33,587 nt of DNA. Origin: a virus. Numbering within the stretch: the first letter of the stretch is position 1; the number at the start of each line of letters is the position of its first letter. The stretch lies in IMG/VR virus record IMGVR_UViG_3300045988_171205; one strand, 5' to 3'. Shown here piece after piece: positions 7,888-32,684 of this stretch. The position numbers and the translations under genes are program-made. Below the pieces are notes generated by a model. The model saw nothing but the letters and a program-made list of their open reading frames with translations, made no database searches and had not been told where the DNA came from.

Positions 7888-8230
7888 AACTTGTGAAGAA
7901 TTATCAAAGAACACAACAAAGGCAGCAAAATATCTAAAACTTGTTACATCAGAAGAGCATCATGCTGTGGTTAAAGAACATCCGAGAATAAAACATATTA
8001 ACATTACAAATGCTAGTATTATCAAGGGTATGAGCGATGAAACAAAACATAATTTTGCTAATTGTTGCATTGCAAATAGAATAGAACCAGAAGAGGTTAT
8101 TGAAACTATAACCAAAATAGCAAATATAGCAATCAATTGTTCAATAGACTTATGTAACAAATATTTTGAGACTTCAGCTGGTAAGGAATATCTAAATATG
8201 AGGAAAAGAATTGATAGAATAGGAAAATAA
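7871..8230 (+). CDS. hypothetical protein
   Basis: Overlapping start. Cys-containing 119-aa product. Followed by a 125-bp extremely AT-rich intergenic region. Confidence 0.4.
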   Translation: MTKSIKTCEELSKNTTKAAKYLKLVTSEEHHAVVKEHPRIKHINITNASIIKGMSDETKHNFANCCIANRIEPEEVIETITKIANIAINCSIDLCNKYFETSAGKEYLNMRKRIDRIGK

Positions 8231-8355
8231 GAAAAAAATATTAAACGAAACAATTGATATTTTTTAATAAATATAGATTTTTATATGAAAAATAATAAAA
8301 ATAATATATAAATTATTGAATATTTTAAGAATTGTTTATGGAGGTAAATGAATAG

Positions 8356-8640
8356 GTGAAAAAAGAAGAATTAAAAGATTTTTTATATAGCGGTAAAAAT
8401 CAAGAATTAGCTTATCGAAATGAAGTATCCGCATGTTTAAGTGCGATATTAGAAATATTAATGCAAGAAGATTTAACTACTTTTGATAAATTTAAAGAAC
8501 TTAAAAAAAAATACATTGAAGAAATTCAAAATCAACAAATAGAGGCATTGACCGATGAAGATATAGAAAATATTAAAGCTGCTAGCAAATTTAATGATCT
8601 ATTTGAAAATTATTTTAAGAAGGAAAGTGAATATAAATGA
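8356..8640 (+). CDS. hypothetical protein (GTG start)
   Basis: GGAGGT lies 12 nt upstream of GTG 8356. First gene after the AT-rich intergenic region. Confidence 0.35.
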   Translation: MKKEELKDFLYSGKNQELAYRNEVSACLSAILEILMQEDLTTFDKFKELKKKYIEEIQNQQIEALTDEDIENIKAASKFNDLFENYFKKESEYK

Positions 8641-8945
8641 GTTTAGATATAGGAGTAAGAGCAACAAGAGAAGTTGAGATATTTGATAGGAATATTACTT
8701 ATAATCTTTCAAAAATGTACTATAAATGTATTCCTGGAGGTTTCAGAGCATTAGATGGTATGAGTTGTAAAGAAGCATTACCAATTTTACAAAAAGCCAT
8801 TGAAGATTTAATAGTGAATCAAGAGGAGTATGAAAAGCTAAATCCTGAAAATGGTTGGGGGACTTATTATGATTTATTAAAAGCAATTAAAGCTATGAGA
8901 AATTGTTGTGAAGATAATCCAGATGGAATTATTGATGTATGTTAG
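8637..8945 (+). CDS. hypothetical protein
   Basis: ATGA overlap with the upstream gene. Confidence 0.4.
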   Translation: MSLDIGVRATREVEIFDRNITYNLSKMYYKCIPGGFRALDGMSCKEALPILQKAIEDLIVNQEEYEKLNPENGWGTYYDLLKAIKAMRNCCEDNPDGIIDVC

Positions 8946-8960
8946 GAGGTGAATAAATAA

Positions 8961-9224
8961 ATGAGATTAATTACATGTGATATATGTGGTAAAGAAATAA
9001 CCAAAAGTTATCAAACGGTTACTGATTTTGACCAATTTTATGATGTATGTAAAGAATGTGAAAAAAAGTTTAATTCTTATAAAAAAGAAAAAGAGAAACT
9101 CTATAGTTCAATAAAAAAAGAATTTGATATTAAATTTAATAAAAAAGAAAAAGAACTACAAGAAAAATACGGTATTAAATTTATTAAAAACACTACTGAA
9201 AATCATAAAAACTATTTTGCATAA
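8961..9224 (+). CDS. Cys4 zinc-ribbon protein
   Basis: AGGAGGTG SD. CDICGKEI...CKECEKKF. Confidence 0.45.
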   Translation: MRLITCDICGKEITKSYQTVTDFDQFYDVCKECEKKFNSYKKEKEKLYSSIKKEFDIKFNKKEKELQEKYGIKFIKNTTENHKNYFA

Positions 9225-9347
9225 AAAATAAGACTTAAAGCCTTATAAAATAAAAGAAAAATAGATATAAATATAGTGCAATATAATAATATACATATCT
9301 TGCATTAAATAAATAGAGAGAAGGGAGGGTATATATTAGTTGATATT

Positions 9348-10208
9348 ATGACTAAAGAAAATCTAAAAGAAAAGAAAAAAGAGTTTATAGAAATGTTAAA
9401 ATTAGAAGAATTGGCTCAAAAAACTCTAGTAAGTTATGAAAATGCAATTGATAAATTCATTGATTTTGTAGATAATGATTTTACTTTAAGTAAGAGTCTA
9501 ATGATTGATTGGAAACATAGTCTAATTGAAAAATATTCAATAAAAAGCAGAAATCAATATATAGTTGTCATTAATAAGTTTTTAAAATTTCTTGGTTATG
9601 GTGATTCTGAAAATAAAGATAAAGATTATAGGATAAAACAATTTAAAGAGCAGTCAAAATCAGTCTTGGAAGAACAGATTGAAATACAAGAACATAAAAG
9701 AATGCTTAGATGGGCTAAAAAAATGAATATGATGGATATGTTCTATATTATTCAAATATTTGCTCATGTAGGTGCCAGAATAGAAGAACTAAAATATTTT
9801 ACTGTTGAAAATCTAGATAGTAATTATATAAAAGGGGCTTATAACAAAGGCAAAGAAAGAGTCCTTATAATGACTAACGAATTAAAGAGGGATCTTAAGC
9901 ACTACTGTAAGGATCATAAAATAAAGAGTGGCTATATCTTTATTAGTCCTGTAAATGAAAATCAAATGTTAAATAATTCTACTATTTGGAGGAGACTAAA
10001 AAAAATAGCAAGAAGTGCAAAAATTAATCCTAAAAAAATCCATCCACATGCTTGGAGACATCTCTTTGCTAAACAATGTAAAGAAAATGGAATTGATTTA
10101 GATGAATTAGCGGATATTTTAGGTCATAAAGATATAAATACAACAGCAATATATACTAAAACCTCAATGAAAGAAAAGAAAAATAAATTAGAAAGGATTA
10201 GATATTAG
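9348..10208 (+). CDS. tyrosine-type site-specific recombinase (XerC/XerD-like, second recombinase in the genome)
   Basis: SAM-like N-terminal domain. Catalytic signature VGARIEEL (R), HPHAWRHLFA (H-x-x-R), LGHKDINTTAIYTK (H...Y). Poor translation signals: a GAAGGGAGGG SD is present but lies 20 nt from the ATG. Confidence 0.8.
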   Translation: MTKENLKEKKKEFIEMLKLEELAQKTLVSYENAIDKFIDFVDNDFTLSKSLMIDWKHSLIEKYSIKSRNQYIVVINKFLKFLGYGDSENKDKDYRIKQFKEQSKSVLEEQIEIQEHKRMLRWAKKMNMMDMFYIIQIFAHVGARIEELKYFTVENLDSNYIKGAYNKGKERVLIMTNELKRDLKHYCKDHKIKSGYIFISPVNENQMLNNSTIWRRLKKIARSAKINPKKIHPHAWRHLFAKQCKENGIDLDELADILGHKDINTTAIYTKTSMKEKKNKLERIRY

Positions 10209-10307
10209 ATGAGTAATGGAGTATTAATTACATTAATTATATGTACTACAATATTAATATTAGCTTGGATCGGCAGCAAAAATAAATAGGAAAGATGGAG
10301 GCTTAAG

Positions 10308-10760
10308 ATGAATTATAAGAAATATTTTGTTACATATTATAATTACAAACAAGCCAAAATAAAATTACAGAACATCCAAAATGAAATAGCAGATATTATA
10401 AGTGCAATGTTATCTACAACTTCTCAAATGAGAGAGGTTGTTAATAGTAATAAGTCAAGTAATGATAAGATGATGGAATTAACAACTAGAAAAATAGAAT
10501 TAGATTCAAAAGAAGAATTAGCAAAAGAATTATTAGGTGTATATAATAGACAAATGCTAGATGCAGAAAAAGAATTAAAAGATAGTAAAGAGACTAAAGA
10601 TATTATTTATTATAAATACTTTATACAACATATTAAAGTTAAAGAAATATCAAAAGATATAGCATTTGCAAGAGAATATACTTACGATTTATTAAAACAA
10701 ATTAAGAGTGATATAGCAAAAATTGAACAGGAACTTATTAAAAAAAATAAAAAAAAGTAA
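10308..10760 (+). CDS. putative late-gene transcriptional activator (ArpU/RinA-like)
   Basis: About 150 aa. C-terminal sigma region-4-like segment IIYYKYFIQHIKVKEISKDIAFAREYTYDLLKQI. Position immediately upstream of the HNH-terS-terL packaging genes is the conserved location for this family. Confidence 0.45.
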   Translation: MNYKKYFVTYYNYKQAKIKLQNIQNEIADIISAMLSTTSQMREVVNSNKSSNDKMMELTTRKIELDSKEELAKELLGVYNRQMLDAEKELKDSKETKDIIYYKYFIQHIKVKEISKDIAFAREYTYDLLKQIKSDIAKIEQELIKKNKKK

Positions 10761-10764
10761 AGTT

Positions 10765-10806
10765 CTTACAAAATCTTACAAAATCTTACAAAACTTGTGT
10801 TACAAT
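10765..10806 (+). promoter_or_regulatory. candidate activator-dependent late promoter: 3 x 10-bp direct repeats TCTTACAAAA (10765-10794) followed by extended -10 TGtTACAAT (10798-10806). No good -35
   Basis: Direct reading. Repeats are in 10-bp helical register and abut the -10. Confidence 0.45.
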
Positions 10807-10830
10807 GGTATCATGGAAGTATTCCAAAGG

Positions 10831-10859
10831 GACAGTAGAAAATAACTATTGTCTTTTTT
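10831..10859 (+). terminator. intrinsic terminator-like hairpin (GACAGTAG-7nt-CTATTGTC plus T6) in the leader between the late promoter and the HNH gene
   Basis: 8-bp stem with one G.U pair followed by TTTTTT. Lies about 20 nt downstream of the predicted late transcription start. Confidence 0.4.
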
Positions 10860-10881
10860 AATTGTTAGGGAGATGGTGATC

Positions 10882-11271
10882 ATGTTAAAGACTTGTAGTC
10901 ACTGTGGTATAGTGCCACAAGATCATATATGTCCTTATAGAAAGTATAAAAATAAAGATAATAGTGATGCAGCGGATAGATTCAGAAGAAGTACACGATG
11001 GACAAAGAAGAGTATAGAGATAAGAGAAAGAGATAAATACTTATGTCAGGTTTGTATAAACAAGTTATACAATACGATTAATGTTTATAACTATAATAAG
11101 TTAGAGGTACATCACATCGTACCAATTAACGAAGATTATAACAAACGATTAGACAATGATAATCTCATCACTCTATGTAACTATCATCATAAGATGGCTG
11201 ATTCAGGAGCTATACCTAGAAAGCTATTAAGCGATATAGTCTTAGGTATCCCCCCTACCATTGAAGAGTAA
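10882..11271 (+). CDS. HNH homing-type endonuclease (packaging-associated)
   Basis: CSHCG...C, then EVHHIVPI...NLITLCNYHHKMADSG (HNH motif). AGGGAG lies 9 nt upstream of ATG 10882. Located next to terS. Confidence 0.75.
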   Translation: MLKTCSHCGIVPQDHICPYRKYKNKDNSDAADRFRRSTRWTKKSIEIRERDKYLCQVCINKLYNTINVYNYNKLEVHHIVPINEDYNKRLDNDNLITLCNYHHKMADSGAIPRKLLSDIVLGIPPTIEE

Positions 11272-11290
11272 TTTCTTTTTAAAGGTAAAA

Positions 11291-11317
11291 GACCCCACCT
11301 ATCCACTCTGTTCACAC
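11291..11317. other. candidate cos region: unusually GC-rich tract GACCCCACCTATCCACTCTGTTCACAC between the HNH and terS genes
   Basis: Local GC richness in a very AT-rich genome. Position between HNH endonuclease and the P27-type small terminase matches HK97-like cos phages. Confidence 0.3.
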
Positions 11318-11361
11318 AAAATATAATTTCTCGTATGTTTTTTTGGAAAGGAGTGTTGGAA

Positions 11362-11706
11362 ATGAGTTTGGATGAGCAAGCAAGTGAAATATTGAAGATT
11401 GCTGAACAACATGGAGTAGAGCAAAACTTTTTATTCTTAACTACATTCAAAAGATATCAAGTTCAACTTAAGATTCTTAGTGATTTAAAAGAAAAGATAA
11501 ATGAGAGTGGAGCATTGGTAACAAAAGAATATGTTAAAGGAAGAAAGAACTTATATACTAATCCAGCAATCAGTGAATTTAATAAAACTTCGACTGCTGC
11601 TAATCAGACAGTTGCAATTCTAATTAAAATTATTAAATCATTGAGAACTGATGAGGGTGAAGAAGAGAATGAGGACGAGTTGTTAAAGGCATTAGGAATT
11701 AGATAA
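11362..11706 (+). CDS. terS: terminase small subunit (P27 family)
   Basis: GGAAAGGAG SD. SLDEQASEILKIAEQ...FKRYQVQLKILSDLKEKINESGALV...YTNPAISEFNKTSTAANQTVAIL has P27-family TerS architecture. Confidence 0.65.
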   Translation: MSLDEQASEILKIAEQHGVEQNFLFLTTFKRYQVQLKILSDLKEKINESGALVTKEYVKGRKNLYTNPAISEFNKTSTAANQTVAILIKIIKSLRTDEGEEENEDELLKALGIR

Positions 11707-13397
11707 TGGACAATAAAGCATACAAATATGCTAAATGGTGTCTTCGTTCGAAGTATGTACCTAAATATGTTAAAAAGCAATGTAAAGAGTTTATTAAAAT
11801 TGCAAATGGTAAAGATAAGAAATATTATCTTAATGAAGAGAAAGTAAAACAAATAGAAAATATATTAAAATTGTTAATAATGCCAAAAGGATTAAAAGCG
11901 GGTACACCATTATATGAGTGTACTTGTAATTATCAATGGCTTTTTTATATTTCTATTCTGGCGGTGGTTAGAAGAGATAATCCAGAAAAAAGAAAGTATG
12001 AGACAGCAATTTTAGAAATAGCAAGAAAAAACTTTAAGACCTATACTATAGCGACACTGTTTATCTTGCTTTTTTTAATGGAGCCAAAGTTTAGTAAGTT
12101 TTATTCTGTTGCTCCAGATGGTGCTTTATCTAGAGAAGTTAAAAATGCAATCGAGGAAACATTAAAATCAAGTCCTATGCTCTATCTTCATAAAGATACT
12201 CCGAGATTTAAGATTTTAAGAGATTCGATAGAATTTCTTTTAAAGGGAAGTAAATATTTTCCTTTAAATTATTCAAATTCTCGTATGGATGGTAAACTTC
12301 CAAATGTTTTCTTGGCAGATGAGGTTGGAGCATTACCAAATTCTTATGCAATCGAAGCAATGAGATCTGGACAATTAAACATATTAAATAAATTAGGTTG
12401 TATTATTTCAACTAAATATCCGACCGCTGATAATCCACTTGAAGATGAGGTTTCTTATTCAAAAAGAGTTTTAGATAAACTTGAAAAAGATGAAACTATA
12501 TTTGCATTGTTGTATGAGCCTGATAATCCAAAAAATTGGACTGATGATGATATTATTCTTAAGCAAGCAAACCCTGTAGCATTGGAGATTCCTGAAATAT
12601 GGCAAGATCTATTGAAAAAAAGGGCTAGAGCAATAGCAATAGAAAATTCAAGAGAAAATTTTCTTACTAAACATTGTAATATTATTTATCAAGGTCAGGG
12701 AACTGAATCTTATGTTGATATCAATGATGTCTTACAATGCAAAGTATCTCATATAGATTGGTCTGGTAGAGAAGTTTATTTAGGTGTTGACCTTTCAATG
12801 TCAAACGATAATTGTTCTGTTGGAATGGTTGCCGAAGATGATGGAAAAATACTAGCTGATGCAATTGCATTTATTCCAGAAGGAAGAATTGATGAAAAAA
12901 CACAATTTGAAAAAATAAATTATAGAAATTTTATAGAATCATTAAAATGTATTGCATGTGGAAATAAGACTGTTGATTATGCTGTTATAGAGGATTTTGT
13001 TTTTCATATAGAACAAAAATATAATGTTAAGATAAAAGCTCTTGGCTATGATAGATATAATGCGATGTCTTCTGCACAAAAATGGGAAAGTGGAGATGGT
13101 GGTAAATACGATGGTATAAATTGTGTACAGATTCGACAACATTCCGATACTTTGCATTCTCCAACAAAGTTACTATTTGAAAAAATATCTAATAGAGAGT
13201 TTCAATATGAAGATAATAAGTTGCTTGAAATTAATTTTCAAAATGCAAGATGTACTTTTGATACAAATATGAATCGATATGTAACAAAGAAAAAATCTAG
13301 AGGAAAAGTAGATATGGTAGTCTCATTAATCAATGCTTGTTATCTACTTGAGCAAGATGTTATCTTTGAAGATGGATTCATAGTGCAAACTTTCTAG
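11706..13397 (+). CDS. terL: terminase large subunit (Terminase_1/HK97-like) with a deviant Walker A (ARKNFKT)
   Basis: 563 aa directly after terS with an ATGA overlap. N-terminal region matches the Terminase_1 layout (QW...; RKNxKT P-loop position). C-terminal nuclease part has D-rich motifs. Confidence 0.75.
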   Translation: MDNKAYKYAKWCLRSKYVPKYVKKQCKEFIKIANGKDKKYYLNEEKVKQIENILKLLIMPKGLKAGTPLYECTCNYQWLFYISILAVVRRDNPEKRKYETAILEIARKNFKTYTIATLFILLFLMEPKFSKFYSVAPDGALSREVKNAIEETLKSSPMLYLHKDTPRFKILRDSIEFLLKGSKYFPLNYSNSRMDGKLPNVFLADEVGALPNSYAIEAMRSGQLNILNKLGCIISTKYPTADNPLEDEVSYSKRVLDKLEKDETIFALLYEPDNPKNWTDDDIILKQANPVALEIPEIWQDLLKKRARAIAIENSRENFLTKHCNIIYQGQGTESYVDINDVLQCKVSHIDWSGREVYLGVDLSMSNDNCSVGMVAEDDGKILADAIAFIPEGRIDEKTQFEKINYRNFIESLKCIACGNKTVDYAVIEDFVFHIEQKYNVKIKALGYDRYNAMSSAQKWESGDGGKYDGINCVQIRQHSDTLHSPTKLLFEKISNREFQYEDNKLLEINFQNARCTFDTNMNRYVTKKKSRGKVDMVVSLINACYLLEQDVIFEDGFIVQTF

Positions 13398-27982: not shown

Positions 27983-28936
27983 ATGAGTAAGTCAAGTCTA
28001 ACACAAAAAGTAGTACCTGCTGATGAAGGTAACTATACTAAAGGTAGAAGCGGTAGAAACATTGAGGCAATAACCATTCATCATATGGCTGGAAGATTAA
28101 CTGCAGAACAGTGTGGAAGAATATTTCAAGCAAAAGGTAGATATGGCTCTAGTCACTATGGTGTAGGTTATGATGGCAGTATTGCTAATTATGTTGATGA
28201 AGAAGATACCGCTTGGACAAACTCTAATTGGGATAGCAATTGTAAATCAATAACTATCGAAATATCAGACAATGATAATTCATGGTATGTTAACGACATC
28301 ACTCTAAATGCTGTTATTAAATTGGTTGCAGATATTGCTAAGAGAAGAGGACTAAGAACATTAGTACCAGGGAAGAACTTAACTTGGCATAGTATGTTTA
28401 CTAATACCACTTGCCCTGGAGATTATCTAAGAAGTAAAATGCAATATATTGCTGATGAGGCTAACAAAATTAATAATGAAAGTACATCAAATGAAGTCAA
28501 TGTTTATTATATGGCTAGAACTAAAAAGCATGGCTGGTTAAAAGAAGTAAAAAATCTAGAGGATTATGCTGGTTACGAGAATAGTCCTATAACTGGTCTT
28601 GCCATTAAAGTAGATAAAGGCTCTGTTAGATATAGAGTACACATAAAAGAAATTAAAGATAATAATGGAAATATAATAGTTAAAGGAAGATGGCTTCCTT
28701 ATGTTACTGATTATAACATAAAAGATAAGATAAATGGCTATGCTGGTAATGGCAATATAATCGATTGTGTAGAAGTTTACTATTATACTCCTAAAAATAT
28801 TAGACCATACAAAAAAGCTAAATATAAAGTAAATAATTATCCTTATCAATATGATAATGAAAAAACCAAAGGACAAGATGGTTATGCTGGTGTATATGGA
28901 GTAACTGCTACAAAATTTCAGATTATTATAGAATAA
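27983..28936 (+). CDS. endolysin: N-acetylmuramoyl-L-alanine amidase (Amidase_2/PGRP domain) with C-terminal cell-wall-binding region
   Basis: EAITIHHMAG...SSHYGVGYDGSI...NSNCKSITIEI...TWHSMFTNTTCPGDY are Amidase_2 zinc-ligand motifs. About 150-aa C-terminal domain. Confidence 0.8.
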   Translation: MSKSSLTQKVVPADEGNYTKGRSGRNIEAITIHHMAGRLTAEQCGRIFQAKGRYGSSHYGVGYDGSIANYVDEEDTAWTNSNWDSNCKSITIEISDNDNSWYVNDITLNAVIKLVADIAKRRGLRTLVPGKNLTWHSMFTNTTCPGDYLRSKMQYIADEANKINNESTSNEVNVYYMARTKKHGWLKEVKNLEDYAGYENSPITGLAIKVDKGSVRYRVHIKEIKDNNGNIIVKGRWLPYVTDYNIKDKINGYAGNGNIIDCVEVYYYTPKNIRPYKKAKYKVNNYPYQYDNEKTKGQDGYAGVYGVTATKFQIIIE

Positions 28937-29406: not shown

Positions 29407-29574
29407 AATCCTTTTCCTACTAAAATTATATAATAGTTCGTTACAAATGTCAAATGAAAAAGATAATTAAAGGGGTAAAATTGGTTTTAGCAATTTATAA
29501 AAATTCAAGTGATAAATATGTTCCTATTTATGATGGTGAATATGTTGTTGATTTTGGAAAGGTGGCTCAATAAT

Positions 29575-30291
29575 ATGGAAAGTAGGGTTACTAGATATTC
29601 CAGAAAAAACAAATTAAAAAGAAAGATGACAAAATTATTTAAGAGTATTTTGAAGAATATGATTTATTTAATAGTTGGGATATTTTCTGCAATGTATTTT
29701 GGATTGAAAGTATTTAATAGATTGATTGAGAAACTATTTAATAAATTGCCTAGAGTAATGAAAGTAGCAATAATCTATTTATTAATTATTAATGTAGGGT
29801 TAGATATTTATAGCATGTTCGGAAAAAATGGCAAAGAAATACAAATATCTTTGAATGATATAAAACTCTCTTCTATACCTACATATATTCCACCAGTTGA
29901 AGAAAAAGAAGAAGTATGTCCTTTTGATAGTATTTCTTGTAAAATATCAGATAAGGGAAAAGAAATAGGTTTAAGCGATGAGCAAATACTAATATCAATT
30001 GCTATTTCTCAGCATGAAACTGGAAACTATACATCTTATGCTTTTAGAGAACTTAATAATGTTGGTGGTATGATGTGCAATAGTGGTTTAAGATCATATG
30101 ATTCACTAGATGATGGCATAGAAGCCTATCTAAATAATTTAAAGTATAATTACTTTGATATAGGATTAGACACTTTAGAAAAAATTCAGCCTAAATATTG
30201 TCCAATAGGAGCCGAAAACGATCCTAAAGGTTTAAATAAATATTGGTTAAGTGGTACTCAAAGGAAATATAATGAATTAATAGGAAAATAA
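29575..30291 (+). CDS. membrane-anchored peptidoglycan hydrolase-like protein (two N-terminal TM helices plus GH73/glucosaminidase-like domain)
   Basis: AISQHETGNYTSYAFRELNNVGGMM...LRSYDSLDDGIEAYLNNLKYNY parallels the AALESGWGxS...NNLFGIK...YxSYxES GH73 signature including the catalytic Glu. Start uncertain (29509 or 29575). Confidence 0.45.
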   Translation: MESRVTRYSRKNKLKRKMTKLFKSILKNMIYLIVGIFSAMYFGLKVFNRLIEKLFNKLPRVMKVAIIYLLIINVGLDIYSMFGKNGKEIQISLNDIKLSSIPTYIPPVEEKEEVCPFDSISCKISDKGKEIGLSDEQILISIAISQHETGNYTSYAFRELNNVGGMMCNSGLRSYDSLDDGIEAYLNNLKYNYFDIGLDTLEKIQPKYCPIGAENDPKGLNKYWLSGTQRKYNELIGK

Positions 30292-30560
30292 ATGAATTTT
30301 TACATCTTATTTACATCTTAAAAAAATATAAAATAATATTATTAAATATCTATTTTAACCTCATTTTATCGCAAAATATAAGGTAATATTATAAAATATA
30401 ATTAAATAATCTATATCTTTATTTTCTCATCACCTGCTCCAAATGAAAATAAACCCTTAAAATATAAGGGTTTTTATTATTTTATATAACTTTTACATCT
30501 TATTTTTTATAATTTTATATAACTTTTACATCTTATTTACATCTTATTTTTTATAATTCT
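30292..30560. other. candidate attP region: direct repeats TTTTACATCTTATTTACATCTTA (30297-30319 and 30524-30546), tandem TTATATAACTTTTACATCTTATTTT copies, and a hairpin AACCCTTA-AAATAT-TAAGGGTT (30454-30475)
   Basis: Repeats read directly. Lies in a noncoding region immediately 3' of the integrase gene. Confidence 0.45.
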
Positions 30561-31627
30561 AATTTATTTAGTCCTTCTGATATTACAAATTTATCGCTTT
30601 CAAATAGATGTGAATATGTTTCTATTACTGTTGTTTCTGTATCTCCAATTCTTGTTGCTACTTGTTTAATTGTGTAGTTCATACTTCTTAAAAGAGTTAC
30701 ATGTGAATGTCTAAACTCGTGAATAGTTATCCTTTTTACATTTGCTTTTTTTATATAACTTTCTTTTTTTCTAGTTATTGTTGTTCTAGATAATGGAACA
30801 ATATCACCGAAGATAAACATTTCATTATTGAATCCATATATTTTTGATTTTTGAATATATAAATCATCTAATAGTTTAATAACATTATTTGGAATATCTA
30901 CTTTTCTATATGAATTACTTGTTTTTGGTGTTGTTATTTTACCACTTTTATTATAGCTCTTATTAATATTTATAATTTTATTGTTATAGTCCTTCCACTT
31001 TAAAGCTTGAAGTTCTCCTATTCTAAGTCCAGCAAAATATAAAAGTGAAAAGAGAGTTTTATATTCTAAATCATCTACCTGATTCATGAATTGTTTATAT
31101 TCATCTAGATTCCATACCTGATATTCTTTTGGTGGTGTTACACCACATTGAATAGTTTTTATTTTATTGAATATTGGTATGTTAAGATCATATATTTCAA
31201 TACCTGTTCTTAAAATAGACTTGAAATAGGTTATTACACTGTTTTGAGTTTTAATATTTAATTTTGAAATATTATTTTTCATTTCTTCAAATTGAATAAT
31301 ACTAATCTTGCTTACCATTGTTTTTTTAAATACTGGCAAGATATGTTTAGTAATTCTATTTTTTGTATTTTCATAGGTTTCCTCTTTATTCTTTTTTTTA
31401 TATTCTTTTAAATATATTAATGTTAATGATTCAAAATCTAAATCTTTTTGTTTTTCATAATTCATTAAAAATGTTCTTTCAGCATCTTGTGCTTCTGCTT
31501 TTGTTAAGAACATTTTAGAAGTCTTTTGTTTTCTACTTCCATTAAGATCATTGTAGTAAGTTCTAAAGTACCAACTTCTACCATCTTTTGAATACTTTTT
31601 TTTATTTTTTTCTTTATAAATTGCCAT
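30551..31627 (-). CDS. int: tyrosine integrase (phage integrase family with N-terminal arm-binding domain)
   Basis: AIYKEKNKKKYSKDGRSWYFRTYY (AP2-like arm-binding N-terminus). GLRIGEL, HEFRHSHVTLL and IETYSH catalytic motifs. Confidence 0.85.
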   Translation of the reverse strand: MAIYKEKNKKKYSKDGRSWYFRTYYNDLNGSRKQKTSKMFLTKAEAQDAERTFLMNYEKQKDLDFESLTLIYLKEYKKKNKEETYENTKNRITKHILPVFKKTMVSKISIIQFEEMKNNISKLNIKTQNSVITYFKSILRTGIEIYDLNIPIFNKIKTIQCGVTPPKEYQVWNLDEYKQFMNQVDDLEYKTLFSLLYFAGLRIGELQALKWKDYNNKIININKSYNKSGKITTPKTSNSYRKVDIPNNVIKLLDDLYIQKSKIYGFNNEMFIFGDIVPLSRTTITRKKESYIKKANVKRITIHEFRHSHVTLLRSMNYTIKQVATRIGDTETTVIETYSHLFESDKFVISEGLNKLEL

Positions 31628-31732: not shown

Positions 31733-31765
31733 CTAGTACCTATTGCAGTAGGTACTAGTTTTTTT
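31733..31765 (+). terminator. hairpin CTAGTACCTA-TTGCAG-TAGGTACTAG followed by T7 between the exonuclease gene and int
   Basis: Perfect 10-bp stem. Orientation of the T-run is + strand; may act bidirectionally. Confidence 0.4.
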
Positions 31766-32684
31766 AATTTAATTCTTCAATTATCTCTCCAGTGTTTTCA
31801 TCCATAATTACAATTTTTTTCTTTTGTGTTGAATTTAAATATAATTGATATACTTTTGAACAAGTTTCACAATCATCTAAAGCCCTATGAGAATCATAAT
31901 TTAATCCTAAATACTCTTTTAGTGTAGCTAATTTATAATTTTCAATACTTTCTCTTGGAATGATTCTTTTTGCTAAGGTAACAGTGTCAATTATTTTATT
32001 ATTACATAATTCTTTTTTATTTCTATAACATTCACTTGCTAACATTTTAATATCATAAGGTGCATTATGTGCCACTAAAGTTAAATCTTCAATAAAATCA
32101 AAAAATTGTGGTATTACTTCATTAATAGTAGGTTTGTCTTTTAAATCTTCTTGTTTTATGCCTGTTAACTGTGTTATAAATGGATTTATTACTTCTTTCG
32201 GATTAATTAGTGTAGAAAAAGTTTCTACTTTTTTATTATCAATAAATTTAATAGCAGATATTTCTATTATTTTGTCACAACTTGGATCTAATCCAGTAGT
32301 CTCTGTATCAAATACGACATAATCCTTAACAATTTTATTTGTTCTTCTTTTTGTATAAGAATCATACCATACAGCTTCTGGAACAAAGTTTCTTTCAATT
32401 TTATCTAAAAGTGAGTTCCCACATTTTGTGCAGAATTTGTTTTCTCTTTTGTTTTTTTCACCACAATACATACATATTTTAAATTTTGTATAATCTATTT
32501 CTTCTTTTATACTAATAATTTTAAATATATCTATTATCCATCCTATACAAAAAAGTCCGCATGTACAAAAATAAAGAATTCCTAGTCCAATTTTTTTATT
32601 ATAAAAATGATGTAATCCAAACCATCCTCCGAGAACACATAATATTAATGAAACTTCTTTATTTTTAATTTTATAATTTATCAT
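31764..32684 (-). CDS. TM2-domain membrane protein fused to zinc ribbon and DEDDh 3'-5' exonuclease (DnaQ/epsilon-like) domain
   Basis: GGWFGLHHFYNKKIGLGILYFCTCGLFCIGWIIDIF is TM2-like. CMYCGEKN...CTKCGN is a zinc ribbon. Exo I is VVFDTETTGLD, Exo II VAHNAPYDIKML, Exo III YDSHRALDDCE. Start overlaps the ImmA stop by 14 nt. Confidence 0.65.
   Translation of the reverse strand: MINYKIKNKEVSLILCVLGGWFGLHHFYNKKIGLGILYFCTCGLFCIGWIIDIFKIISIKEEIDYTKFKICMYCGEKNKRENKFCTKCGNSLLDKIERNFVPEAVWYDSYTKRRTNKIVKDYVVFDTETTGLDPSCDKIIEISAIKFIDNKKVETFSTLINPKEVINPFITQLTGIKQEDLKDKPTINEVIPQFFDFIEDLTLVAHNAPYDIKMLASECYRNKKELCNNKIIDTVTLAKRIIPRESIENYKLATLKEYLGLNYDSHRALDDCETCSKVYQLYLNSTQKKKIVIMDENTGEIIEELN

Follow-up and report, generated by a model that had tools for sequence, protein, structure and literature searches.

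A gene for a simple, Xer-like tyrosine recombinase and a 28-bp imperfect inverted repeat in its leader lie together in the IMG/VR virus record IMGVR_UViG_3300045988_171205, a stretch of 33,587 nucleotides that is referred to in its entirety as the window. The 33.6-kb window has a GC content of 27% and represents a temperate siphophage-like genome. Comparison with related phages indicates that the repeat is very probably the cognate core site of the recombinase. Chances appear evenly balanced that gene and site together form an autonomous module, comparable to Cre/loxP or XerS/difSL, which would recombine copies of the phage genome, for example in the resolution of multimers. Since the selected function is something that we infer, this reading as a whole is held with less confidence than the pairing of gene and site.

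The recombinase and the repeat in its leader

N-terminal Phage_int_SAM_4 and SAM_1 matches and a match to PF00589 (Phage_integrase; 1.9e-23 in Pfam) occupy the 286 residues of the recombinase, and no arm-binding domain is present. This SAM-like plus catalytic architecture is that of the simple Xer type, unlike that of the other integrase of the window. The catalytic domain carries the R-K-H-R-H/W-Y set of the tyrosine recombinase superfamily (R144, K169, H234, R237, H260 and Y269), and all six residues are invariant in aligned homologues down to 43% identity, which argues for an enzyme family under selection for catalysis and not for a decayed remnant. A sequence-only reading of this DNA had proposed a complete Xer-like recombinase distinct from the attP-adjacent integrase, and both the domains and the catalytic residues bear this out. 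The best match in NCBIfam was XerA, with a score of 142.3 that lies below the equivalog cut-off of 220; scores for XerD (101.6 against 329.6), XerC (96.3 against 335) and XerS (44.1 against 267) were also below their cut-offs, and matches to invertases reached 23 bits against a cut-off of about 221. As the cut-offs of all named Xer families were missed by a wide margin, we assign the protein to none of XerA, XerC, XerD and XerS and class it as a simple tyrosine recombinase of Xer-like type.

A sequence search of the PDB placed the archaeal XerA structures 4a8e (7.8e-24) and 5hxy and the XerD structure 1a0p nearest to the recombinase, and there was no Cre chain among the matches at E<=1e-3. At E<=1e-10, 1270 database proteins match the recombinase. 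Full-length protein matches in GenBank are at most 30% identical, and one unannotated fragment is 41% identical over 57% of the query. No close phage was found in GenBank by DNA. The closest plasmid homologues are plasmid-borne tyrosine recombinases of at most 36% identity, which are uninformative on function. As a separate observation, two loci of relatives (L088 4138-5529 and L100 6462-7853, in site-forward orientation) encode, besides the Xer-like protein, a further tyrosine recombinase of 463 aa; it has a helix-turn-helix-like N-terminal region, is extended at the C terminus and is encoded among the early genes, on the lytic strand.

Replication and early genes fill the + strand up to position 9224 and are followed by the recombinase gene. 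On its 3' side lie, in order, a 26-aa open reading frame (ORF), a 150-aa ORF, an HNH endonuclease gene, TerS, TerL, the portal gene and the remaining late genes. The gene had been described as embedded in the early region; it does adjoin early genes, but by gene order it sits at the boundary between early and late genes, away from attP.

The inverted repeat was found exactly where the sequence-only reading had placed it, 44 nt 5' of the start codon and within the leader of the recombinase gene itself (Table 1). With arms of ~11 bp, a centre of 6-8 bp and imperfect inversion, it has the geometry of a Xer/dif-type site. The repeat can also be read as TGCAATATAA-(8)-ATATCTTGCA, in a 10-8-10 arrangement whose arms are complementary at 8 of 10 positions. 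The left arm holds a TATAAT hexamer (9282-9287). The 28-mer occurs once in the window, without half-site clusters, so that the earlier remark that no partner site exists in this genome was correct. Matches to the arm motif were not enriched in the window (33, against 27.6 expected), and neither strand folded better than shuffled sequence. Similar inverted repeats are frequent in DNA of 27% GC (27 pairs in 1.3 kb), and the window alone therefore cannot show that the repeat matters.

The second-best match to a position weight matrix (PWM) of the site in the window lies 34 nt past the recombinase stop codon, inside the 26-aa ORF. Its score was 12.1, compared to a 95% null quantile of 8.8; the variant in L009 and L012 scored 15.0, and no counterpart was present in the 83% relative L023. 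With such marginal support, this 28-mer may be a decayed second site or a chance match.

Table 1. Positions of the recombinase gene, its putative site and associated features in the window, and of paired sites in relatives (L numbers designate loci of relatives).
Feature	Position	Strand or orientation	Remarks
Simple (Xer-type) tyrosine recombinase gene, 286 aa	9348-10208	+	Pfam match; SAM-like core-binding and catalytic domains
Probable recombinase core-type site, 28 bp	9277-9304	+	Conserved beside homologues; one copy in window
Left arm TGCAATATAAT	9277-9287	+	11-6-11 parse, favoured by comparative data
Variable centre AATATA	9288-9293	+	Crossover candidate
Right arm CATATCTTGCA	9294-9304	+	Imperfect inverse of left arm; 11-6-11 parse
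Conserved non-coding block 5' of the site	9207-9276	+	A-tract-rich; candidate accessory or promoter-proximal region
A-tract-rich motif AAAAACTATTT	9207-9217	+	Within conserved block
A-tract-rich motif TAAAAAATAAG	9222-9232	+	Includes stop codon of ORF 8961-9224
A-tract-rich motif AAAGCCTTATAAAATA	9237-9252	+	Within conserved block
Conserved leader AAATAAATAGAGAG	9305-9329	+	Ends in Shine-Dalgarno sequence GAAGGGAGGG (9320-9329); in repeated unit of relatives
Spacer between Shine-Dalgarno sequence and ATG, 18 nt	9330-9347	+	Holds ~11-nt lineage-specific insertion; no significant RNA structure
Weak site-like 28-mer TGTACTACAAT-ATTAAT-ATTAGCTTGGA	10242-10269	+	Second-best PWM match in window
Canonical integrase gene	30551-31627	-	Arm-DNA-bind_4, SAM_3 and catalytic domains; adjoins repressor module
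Paired sites in relatives (site-forward)	L028 1236, 4776; L068 6096, 7095; L166 9620, 11132; L107 1152, 3571	direct	Bracket recombinase and variable cargo

Recurrence of the site beside homologous genes

The consensus of the 28-mer across phages consists of TGCAATATAAT, 6 variable bases and (C/G)(A/T)TATCTTGCA. We searched IMG/VR, GTDB genomes and metagenomes with the pattern TGCAATATAAT-N9-ATCTTGCA, which yielded 44 viral loci and 35 genome loci, together with 44 metagenome loci for which the pattern was slightly relaxed. Wherever the stretch of DNA reached far enough, matches with an extended right arm adjoined a homologue of the recombinase on the same strand (41-100% identity); about a dozen of the loci end near the site, so that a homologue would be out of view. 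Matches with no homologue in view mostly lack the extended arm too and look like chance occurrences. The named hosts of the site-bearing genome loci are metagenome-assembled genomes (MAGs) of uncultured Bacilli, Tenericutes, Mollicutes and Mycoplasma, and Herbinix hemicellulosilytica.

To avoid the bias of a search by site, loci were also sampled with a profile of the protein alone; this identified 235 relatives in IMG/VR, and 80 of them were retrieved. A site-like 28-mer was present at 51 of the 59 loci that were not identical to the window, in every case on the strand of the gene, whereas shuffled DNA scanned on both strands at a similar threshold gave about 3 matches per 570 kb. Among IMG/VR homologues that share 64-83% identity with the window protein, this 28-mer recurs almost unchanged 19-46 nt 5' of the start codon within flanking intergenic DNA that has diverged, and the TerL proteins of phages sharing the site and a recombinase homologue are only 22-27% identical. 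Gene and site are thus linked at a distance of 19-46 nt in the clade of the window, and within 0.1-3.7 kb in other clades.

Variation in the site is concentrated in the six central positions, which read AATATA, ATAATA, ATAGTA, ATTGTG, ATTATG, GTTGGG and others, as would be expected where strands cross over. Across clades, conservation is higher in the left arm than in the right, and the type of right arm follows the recombinase tree: CATATCTTGCA is restricted to the clade of the window, GTTATCTTGCA occurs in its sisters, and CATTCGTTGCA and GTTATATTGCA occur in separate deep clades. The agreement between arm type and clade persists even at a distance of 0.4-2.3 kb between site and gene. Conservation beside homologues, a variable centre and arm variants that track clades are indirect but strong evidence and together make it very probable that the upstream repeat is a core site of the recombinase, as the sequence-only reading had suggested.

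Two sets of loci showed other arrangements. L020 and L021 encode a 64%-identical recombinase with no 28-mer in the fetched locus (about 6 kb on each side in L021); a different inverted repeat, TTGCGTT-TAGTTAT-AACGCAA, is found there about 40-70 nt before the start codon. L089 and L096 are two contigs of the MAG CAMOSQ01. One of them stops precisely at the site's outer edge; in the other, the site lies 27 nt into the stored stretch, and if that stretch begins at the contig end, the two would overlap by 55 nt. A branch of the assembly graph at the site, arising from a strain mixture or a repeat, could account for this.

Conservation is not confined to the 28-mer. The blocks AAAAAGTATC, TAAAAAATA and AAAsCCTTATAAATA stand in register across 68 dereplicated units from different phages and span about 100 nt upstream of the site, while downstream the loci share the consensus t..AaTA.a.ag..aaAAagg.Gg. 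The upstream blocks yielded neither a recurring motif similar to the arms nor an accessory protein or other binding factor. RNAalifold found no consensus structure in the 68 aligned upstream units (energy 0.0) and did not uphold compensatory hairpin changes that had been seen by eye; the upstream stretch of the window folded no better than shuffles, and the site region had no match in Rfam. In the cer/psi sites used by XerCD and in the TnpI/IRS system of Tn4430, the core is bordered on one side by conserved DNA to which accessory factors bind and which makes the reaction selective for resolution. The unit in the window may be comparable, with its core at one end of a conserved stretch just 5' of the recombinase gene, where binding could autoregulate the gene, and the conserved DNA may serve as accessory recombination DNA, as a promoter, or as both. 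Just 5' of the conserved unit, a 34-nt direct repeat (9112-9190, + strand; 79% identity, 45-nt spacing) lies within the zinc-ribbon-like ORF 8961-9224.

The long distance between the Shine-Dalgarno (SD) sequence and the start codon, which had been taken as a sign of deliberately weak or unusual initiation, is real, but that interpretation is unsupported. The SD GGGAGGG (9323-9329) is separated by 18 nt from the ATG at 9348, and no other canonical start codon is in frame downstream of the TAA at 9306. When aligned with L022, L187 and L188, the lineage of the window shows an insertion of ~11 nt of its own, and the gap is therefore not a feature of the family. Relatives start about 8-10 nt from the same SD with TTG (83% identity), GTG (68%) or ATG (70%), and a long gap is also seen in the 77% relative L183. 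An out-of-frame ORF of three codons (TTG ATA TTA TGA, 9340-9351) overlaps the ATG; its TTG corresponds in the alignment to the start codon, also TTG, of the 83% relative. Translational coupling through this ORF was considered, but the idea was weakened by the presence of TTA in place of TTG 9340 in the near-identical relatives L038 and L054, and the arrangement was therefore not treated as designed.

Possible roles of the recombinase and its site

In a module of the kind proposed, each arm (TGCAATATAAT and CATATCTTGCA) would bind one recombinase monomer, and strands would be exchanged across the variable centre of 6-8 bp. With one site per genome, a productive reaction would require two copies of the genome. 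Dimers or multimers that arise from replication or homologous recombination would then be turned into monomers, and the same reaction could cross two co-resident phage genomes at the junction of early and late genes. Recombinase bound at the leader site, with its TATAAT, would probably limit its own expression. What sequence and comparison establish is the enzyme family, the intact catalytic residues, the site, its association with the gene, its single copy and the fact that it does not serve for integration in a lysogen. Binding, catalysis, autoregulation and multimer resolution as the selected function are all predictions, and among the roles proposed earlier, resolution of dimers or multimers appears to fit best. 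The others fared less well. No evidence was obtained for a partner of a directionality factor. An invertible switch is unsupported, as the window has a single site and no inverted partner, and a tyrosine DNA invertase of the FimB/FimE or Rci-like type was rejected on the same ground, the second sites of relatives being direct and never inverted. Excision is a live option only through a sister clade with two direct sites. A protelomerase (TelN/TelK), a large enzyme whose target is a perfect palindrome, centre included, was also rejected: the protein has only 286 residues, and the site has imperfect arms and a non-palindromic centre, AATATA(C).

Several points weigh against genome-copy recombination as the function. 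No recombinant junction, circle or dimer was found in assemblies. The phage integrates by means of another enzyme and, from its HNH and terminase genes, seems to be of the cos type; since many phages of that type package from concatemers, the benefit of multimer resolution is not obvious. The two direct sites that flank the gene in the sister clade should not be tolerated by a pure resolution system. Conservation over ~100 nt upstream, and down to the SD, goes beyond a minimal core site, and a transcriptional role is possible. Finally, co-inheritance of a linked gene and site could alone produce the correlation between clade and arm type.

The sister clade, in which recombinases are 53-59% identical to the window protein, always has two direct sites flanking the gene, 999-3561 nt apart (L068, L166, L107, L067, L044, L076, L028, L145, L150, L157, L161 and L162). 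This arrangement raises the alternative that the module is a small self-excising, possibly mobile or exchangeable cassette, and that the window carries a fixed derivative with a decayed downstream site, which we consider unlikely. Such a pattern would arise if a circular cassette of gene plus site integrated and later lost one site. The smallest form, site-30 nt-gene-79 nt-site in L068, is what integration of a ~1-kb circle would be expected to leave, and one-sided forms occur in other clades, with the site about 30 nt upstream or about 80-95 nt downstream. The central 6 bp are equal within a pair in several lineages but differ between lineages (ATTGTG/ATTGTG, ATTATG/ATTATG), and phages with flanks that are 93-99% identical contain differing cargo between the sites, with recombinases only 81% identical at the DNA level. 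Between phages whose structural modules are unrelated, no gene is better conserved than that of the recombinase, and the 28-mer at 10242-10269 could be a relic of the lost site. However, this match is barely above background and is absent at 83% identity. No pair of empty and filled sites was found by flank BLAST among the loci or via the neighbouring 150-aa gene, and about 120 site-bearing loci included no excision-product site (T-ATTGTG-ATT). Three ~1-kb contigs with the gene, examined as possible circular mini-elements, were plain fragments with no terminal overlap, and the recombinase is retained in each of the 13 close relatives of the window that were reached via the adjacent gene. In L061/L103 and in L094 a site is present but no recombinase is visible; the contig of the former stops 886 nt upstream, and the stored stretch of the latter starts only 485 nt upstream of the site. 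Moreover, the two units of a pair share ~130 nt, from about -80 nt to the SD, at 89-96% identity, and not just the 28 nt of the site; duplication of a regulatory unit followed by homologous exchange could explain this. A broader proposal, that the recombinase and the ~135-nt unit make up a natural 'floxed' cassette system inside phage genomes, of which the window phage is a one-sited fixed descendant, seems to us rather unlikely. Were it true, recombination might have one of three outcomes: excision of the cassette as a circle able to enter other site-bearing phages; exchange of cassettes between co-resident phages; or, upon excision, fusion of the active upstream half-site and promoter to the genes past the second site, including a putative late regulator.

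The ~135-nt unit could instead be mainly the promoter or operator of a middle transcription unit where early and late genes meet, with the protein acting chiefly as a DNA-binding regulator and recombination being incidental. The site is always intergenic and oriented with the downstream genes, and the leader and SD follow whatever gene comes next; the invariant left arm contains TATAAT and has A-tract-rich DNA upstream of it. This arm is the more conserved of the two, and in two-site phages the upstream site always ends in ...TATAAT and the downstream site in ...TATAAC, a change that would disable a -10 element only. A sigma-70 promoter at the site was nevertheless rejected, since neither a -35 nor an extended -10 element was found at the right spacing and a consensus scan was unenriched (36 matches against 27 expected). 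A mere DNA-binding regulator would, in addition, have no need of the six catalytic residues that are invariant throughout the family, and we regard this explanation as quite improbable. It is very improbable that gene and site represent a second integrase and a second attP for an alternative chromosomal integration site. The position of the recombinase gene beside the site is the usual int-attP layout, and simple Xer-like integrases that lack arm sites exist. However, a recombinase 83% identical to that of the window is found mid-prophage in a 350-kb gut contig with the same gene order and an identical site; the site is thus intact and internal in an integrated prophage, and is not an attP in use. 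Among 185,579 species genomes in GTDB, the extended site occurred only with phage-type flanking blocks, loci with no homologue being cut near the site, and there is thus no copy of a host dif of that sequence. The window, moreover, has a complete canonical integrase with an arm-binding domain beside its repressor module; the 286-aa protein, which has no such domain, and its unsplit site do not conform to the lambda type. It is hardly credible that the repeat arose by chance in AT-rich DNA and that the gene is an inactive integrase remnant. The arm motif is indeed unenriched in the window and similar repeats abound there, but the gene is full-length with catalytic residues conserved family-wide, and dozens of independent phages have the 28-mer next to a homologue.

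Single-recombinase resolution systems are known to take the form of a gene-plus-site module, as in XerS/difSL and XerA/dif (PMC5357621). Like those of streptococci and lactococci (XerS/difSL) and of some archaea (XerA/dif), the pair in the window combines a lone recombinase, ~280-360 aa in these systems, with an imperfect repeat of ~11-bp arms beside the gene; it differs in being phage-borne and not at a chromosome terminus, in the sequence of the site and in the ~100 nt conserved upstream. The FtsK-controlled resolution of chromosome dimers at a dif site in the replication terminus may have no counterpart here. Cre/loxP, which keeps phage P1 genomes monomeric (PMC2409434), likewise comprises a phage-encoded tyrosine recombinase and a single cognate site near its gene. 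However, P1 is a plasmid prophage, while the window phage has a canonical integrase and integrates, and loxP has a 13-8-13 structure in contrast to arms of 10-11 bp. Extra Xer-like recombinases that belong to lytic modules and lie outside the lysogeny module are also encoded by Tyrovirus (gp50) and Erysipelothrix phage SE-1 (gp13). Beside the gene for Tyrovirus gp50 is an 11-bp/6-bp/11-bp inverted repeat, the function of which is stated to be unknown (PMC9703825). In addition to a canonical integrase, SE-1 encodes an Xer-like protein of 30% identity among its early genes. These proteins are only 25-30% identical to the window recombinase and differ in site sequences, hosts and genome sizes; inspection by eye did not reveal the 28-mer near SE-1 gp13. 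Such extra recombinases have been noted before without being explained. No description of the present recombinase family or its site was found in the literature, the coverage of which was incomplete, so that this is absence of evidence only.

From sequence alone, the comparison defines a recombinase and its probable 28-bp target, which are widespread among the temperate phages of uncultured Bacilli and Mollicutes-like bacteria from the gut. The pair is a candidate orthogonal Cre-like tool for AT-rich Firmicutes. It also offers a concrete case for an old question, namely the presence in some temperate phages, and even in virulent ones, of additional Xer-like recombinases that lie apart from the lysogeny module. 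If the paired sites of the sister clade are active, they would allow phage mosaicism to arise by site-specific recombination, or would form a gene switch operated by recombination.

Neighbouring genes and the lysogeny module

The hydrophobic 26-aa ORF downstream of the recombinase gene (10209-10289, + strand) begins right at its stop codon (TAGATG), has a weak match to Hok/Gef (E=0.004) and is kept in near-identical relatives. The 150-aa ORF that follows (10308-10760, + strand) lies between the recombinase and the HNH and terminase genes, the usual place of late activators, and its homologues, which are 31-49% identical, come after the recombinase in other phages. It had no match in Pfam or PHROG, and a RinA-like late activator was set aside as a positional guess. 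The sole terminator-like hairpin detected in 8000-12000 lies at 10826-10858 (+ strand), between the 150-aa ORF and the HNH gene.

The endolysin gene (27983-28936) is followed by a leftward lysogeny module, which contains the canonical integrase, a fusion of TM2, zinc-ribbon and RNase_T exonuclease domains, an ImmA-like protease and a repressor. Between endolysin and integrase, a 260-aa ORF (29509-30291, + strand) occupies a moron-like position near the expected attP region; its only match, to a glucosaminidase, was weak and below cut-off (E=1.8e-4). The fusion protein (306 aa; 31764-32684, - strand) joins a TM2 membrane domain and a zinc ribbon to an RNase_T/DEDD exonuclease and is encoded between the canonical integrase and the ImmA/repressor pair. 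Such a membrane-anchored exonuclease in a lysogeny module could have an exclusion or defence function.

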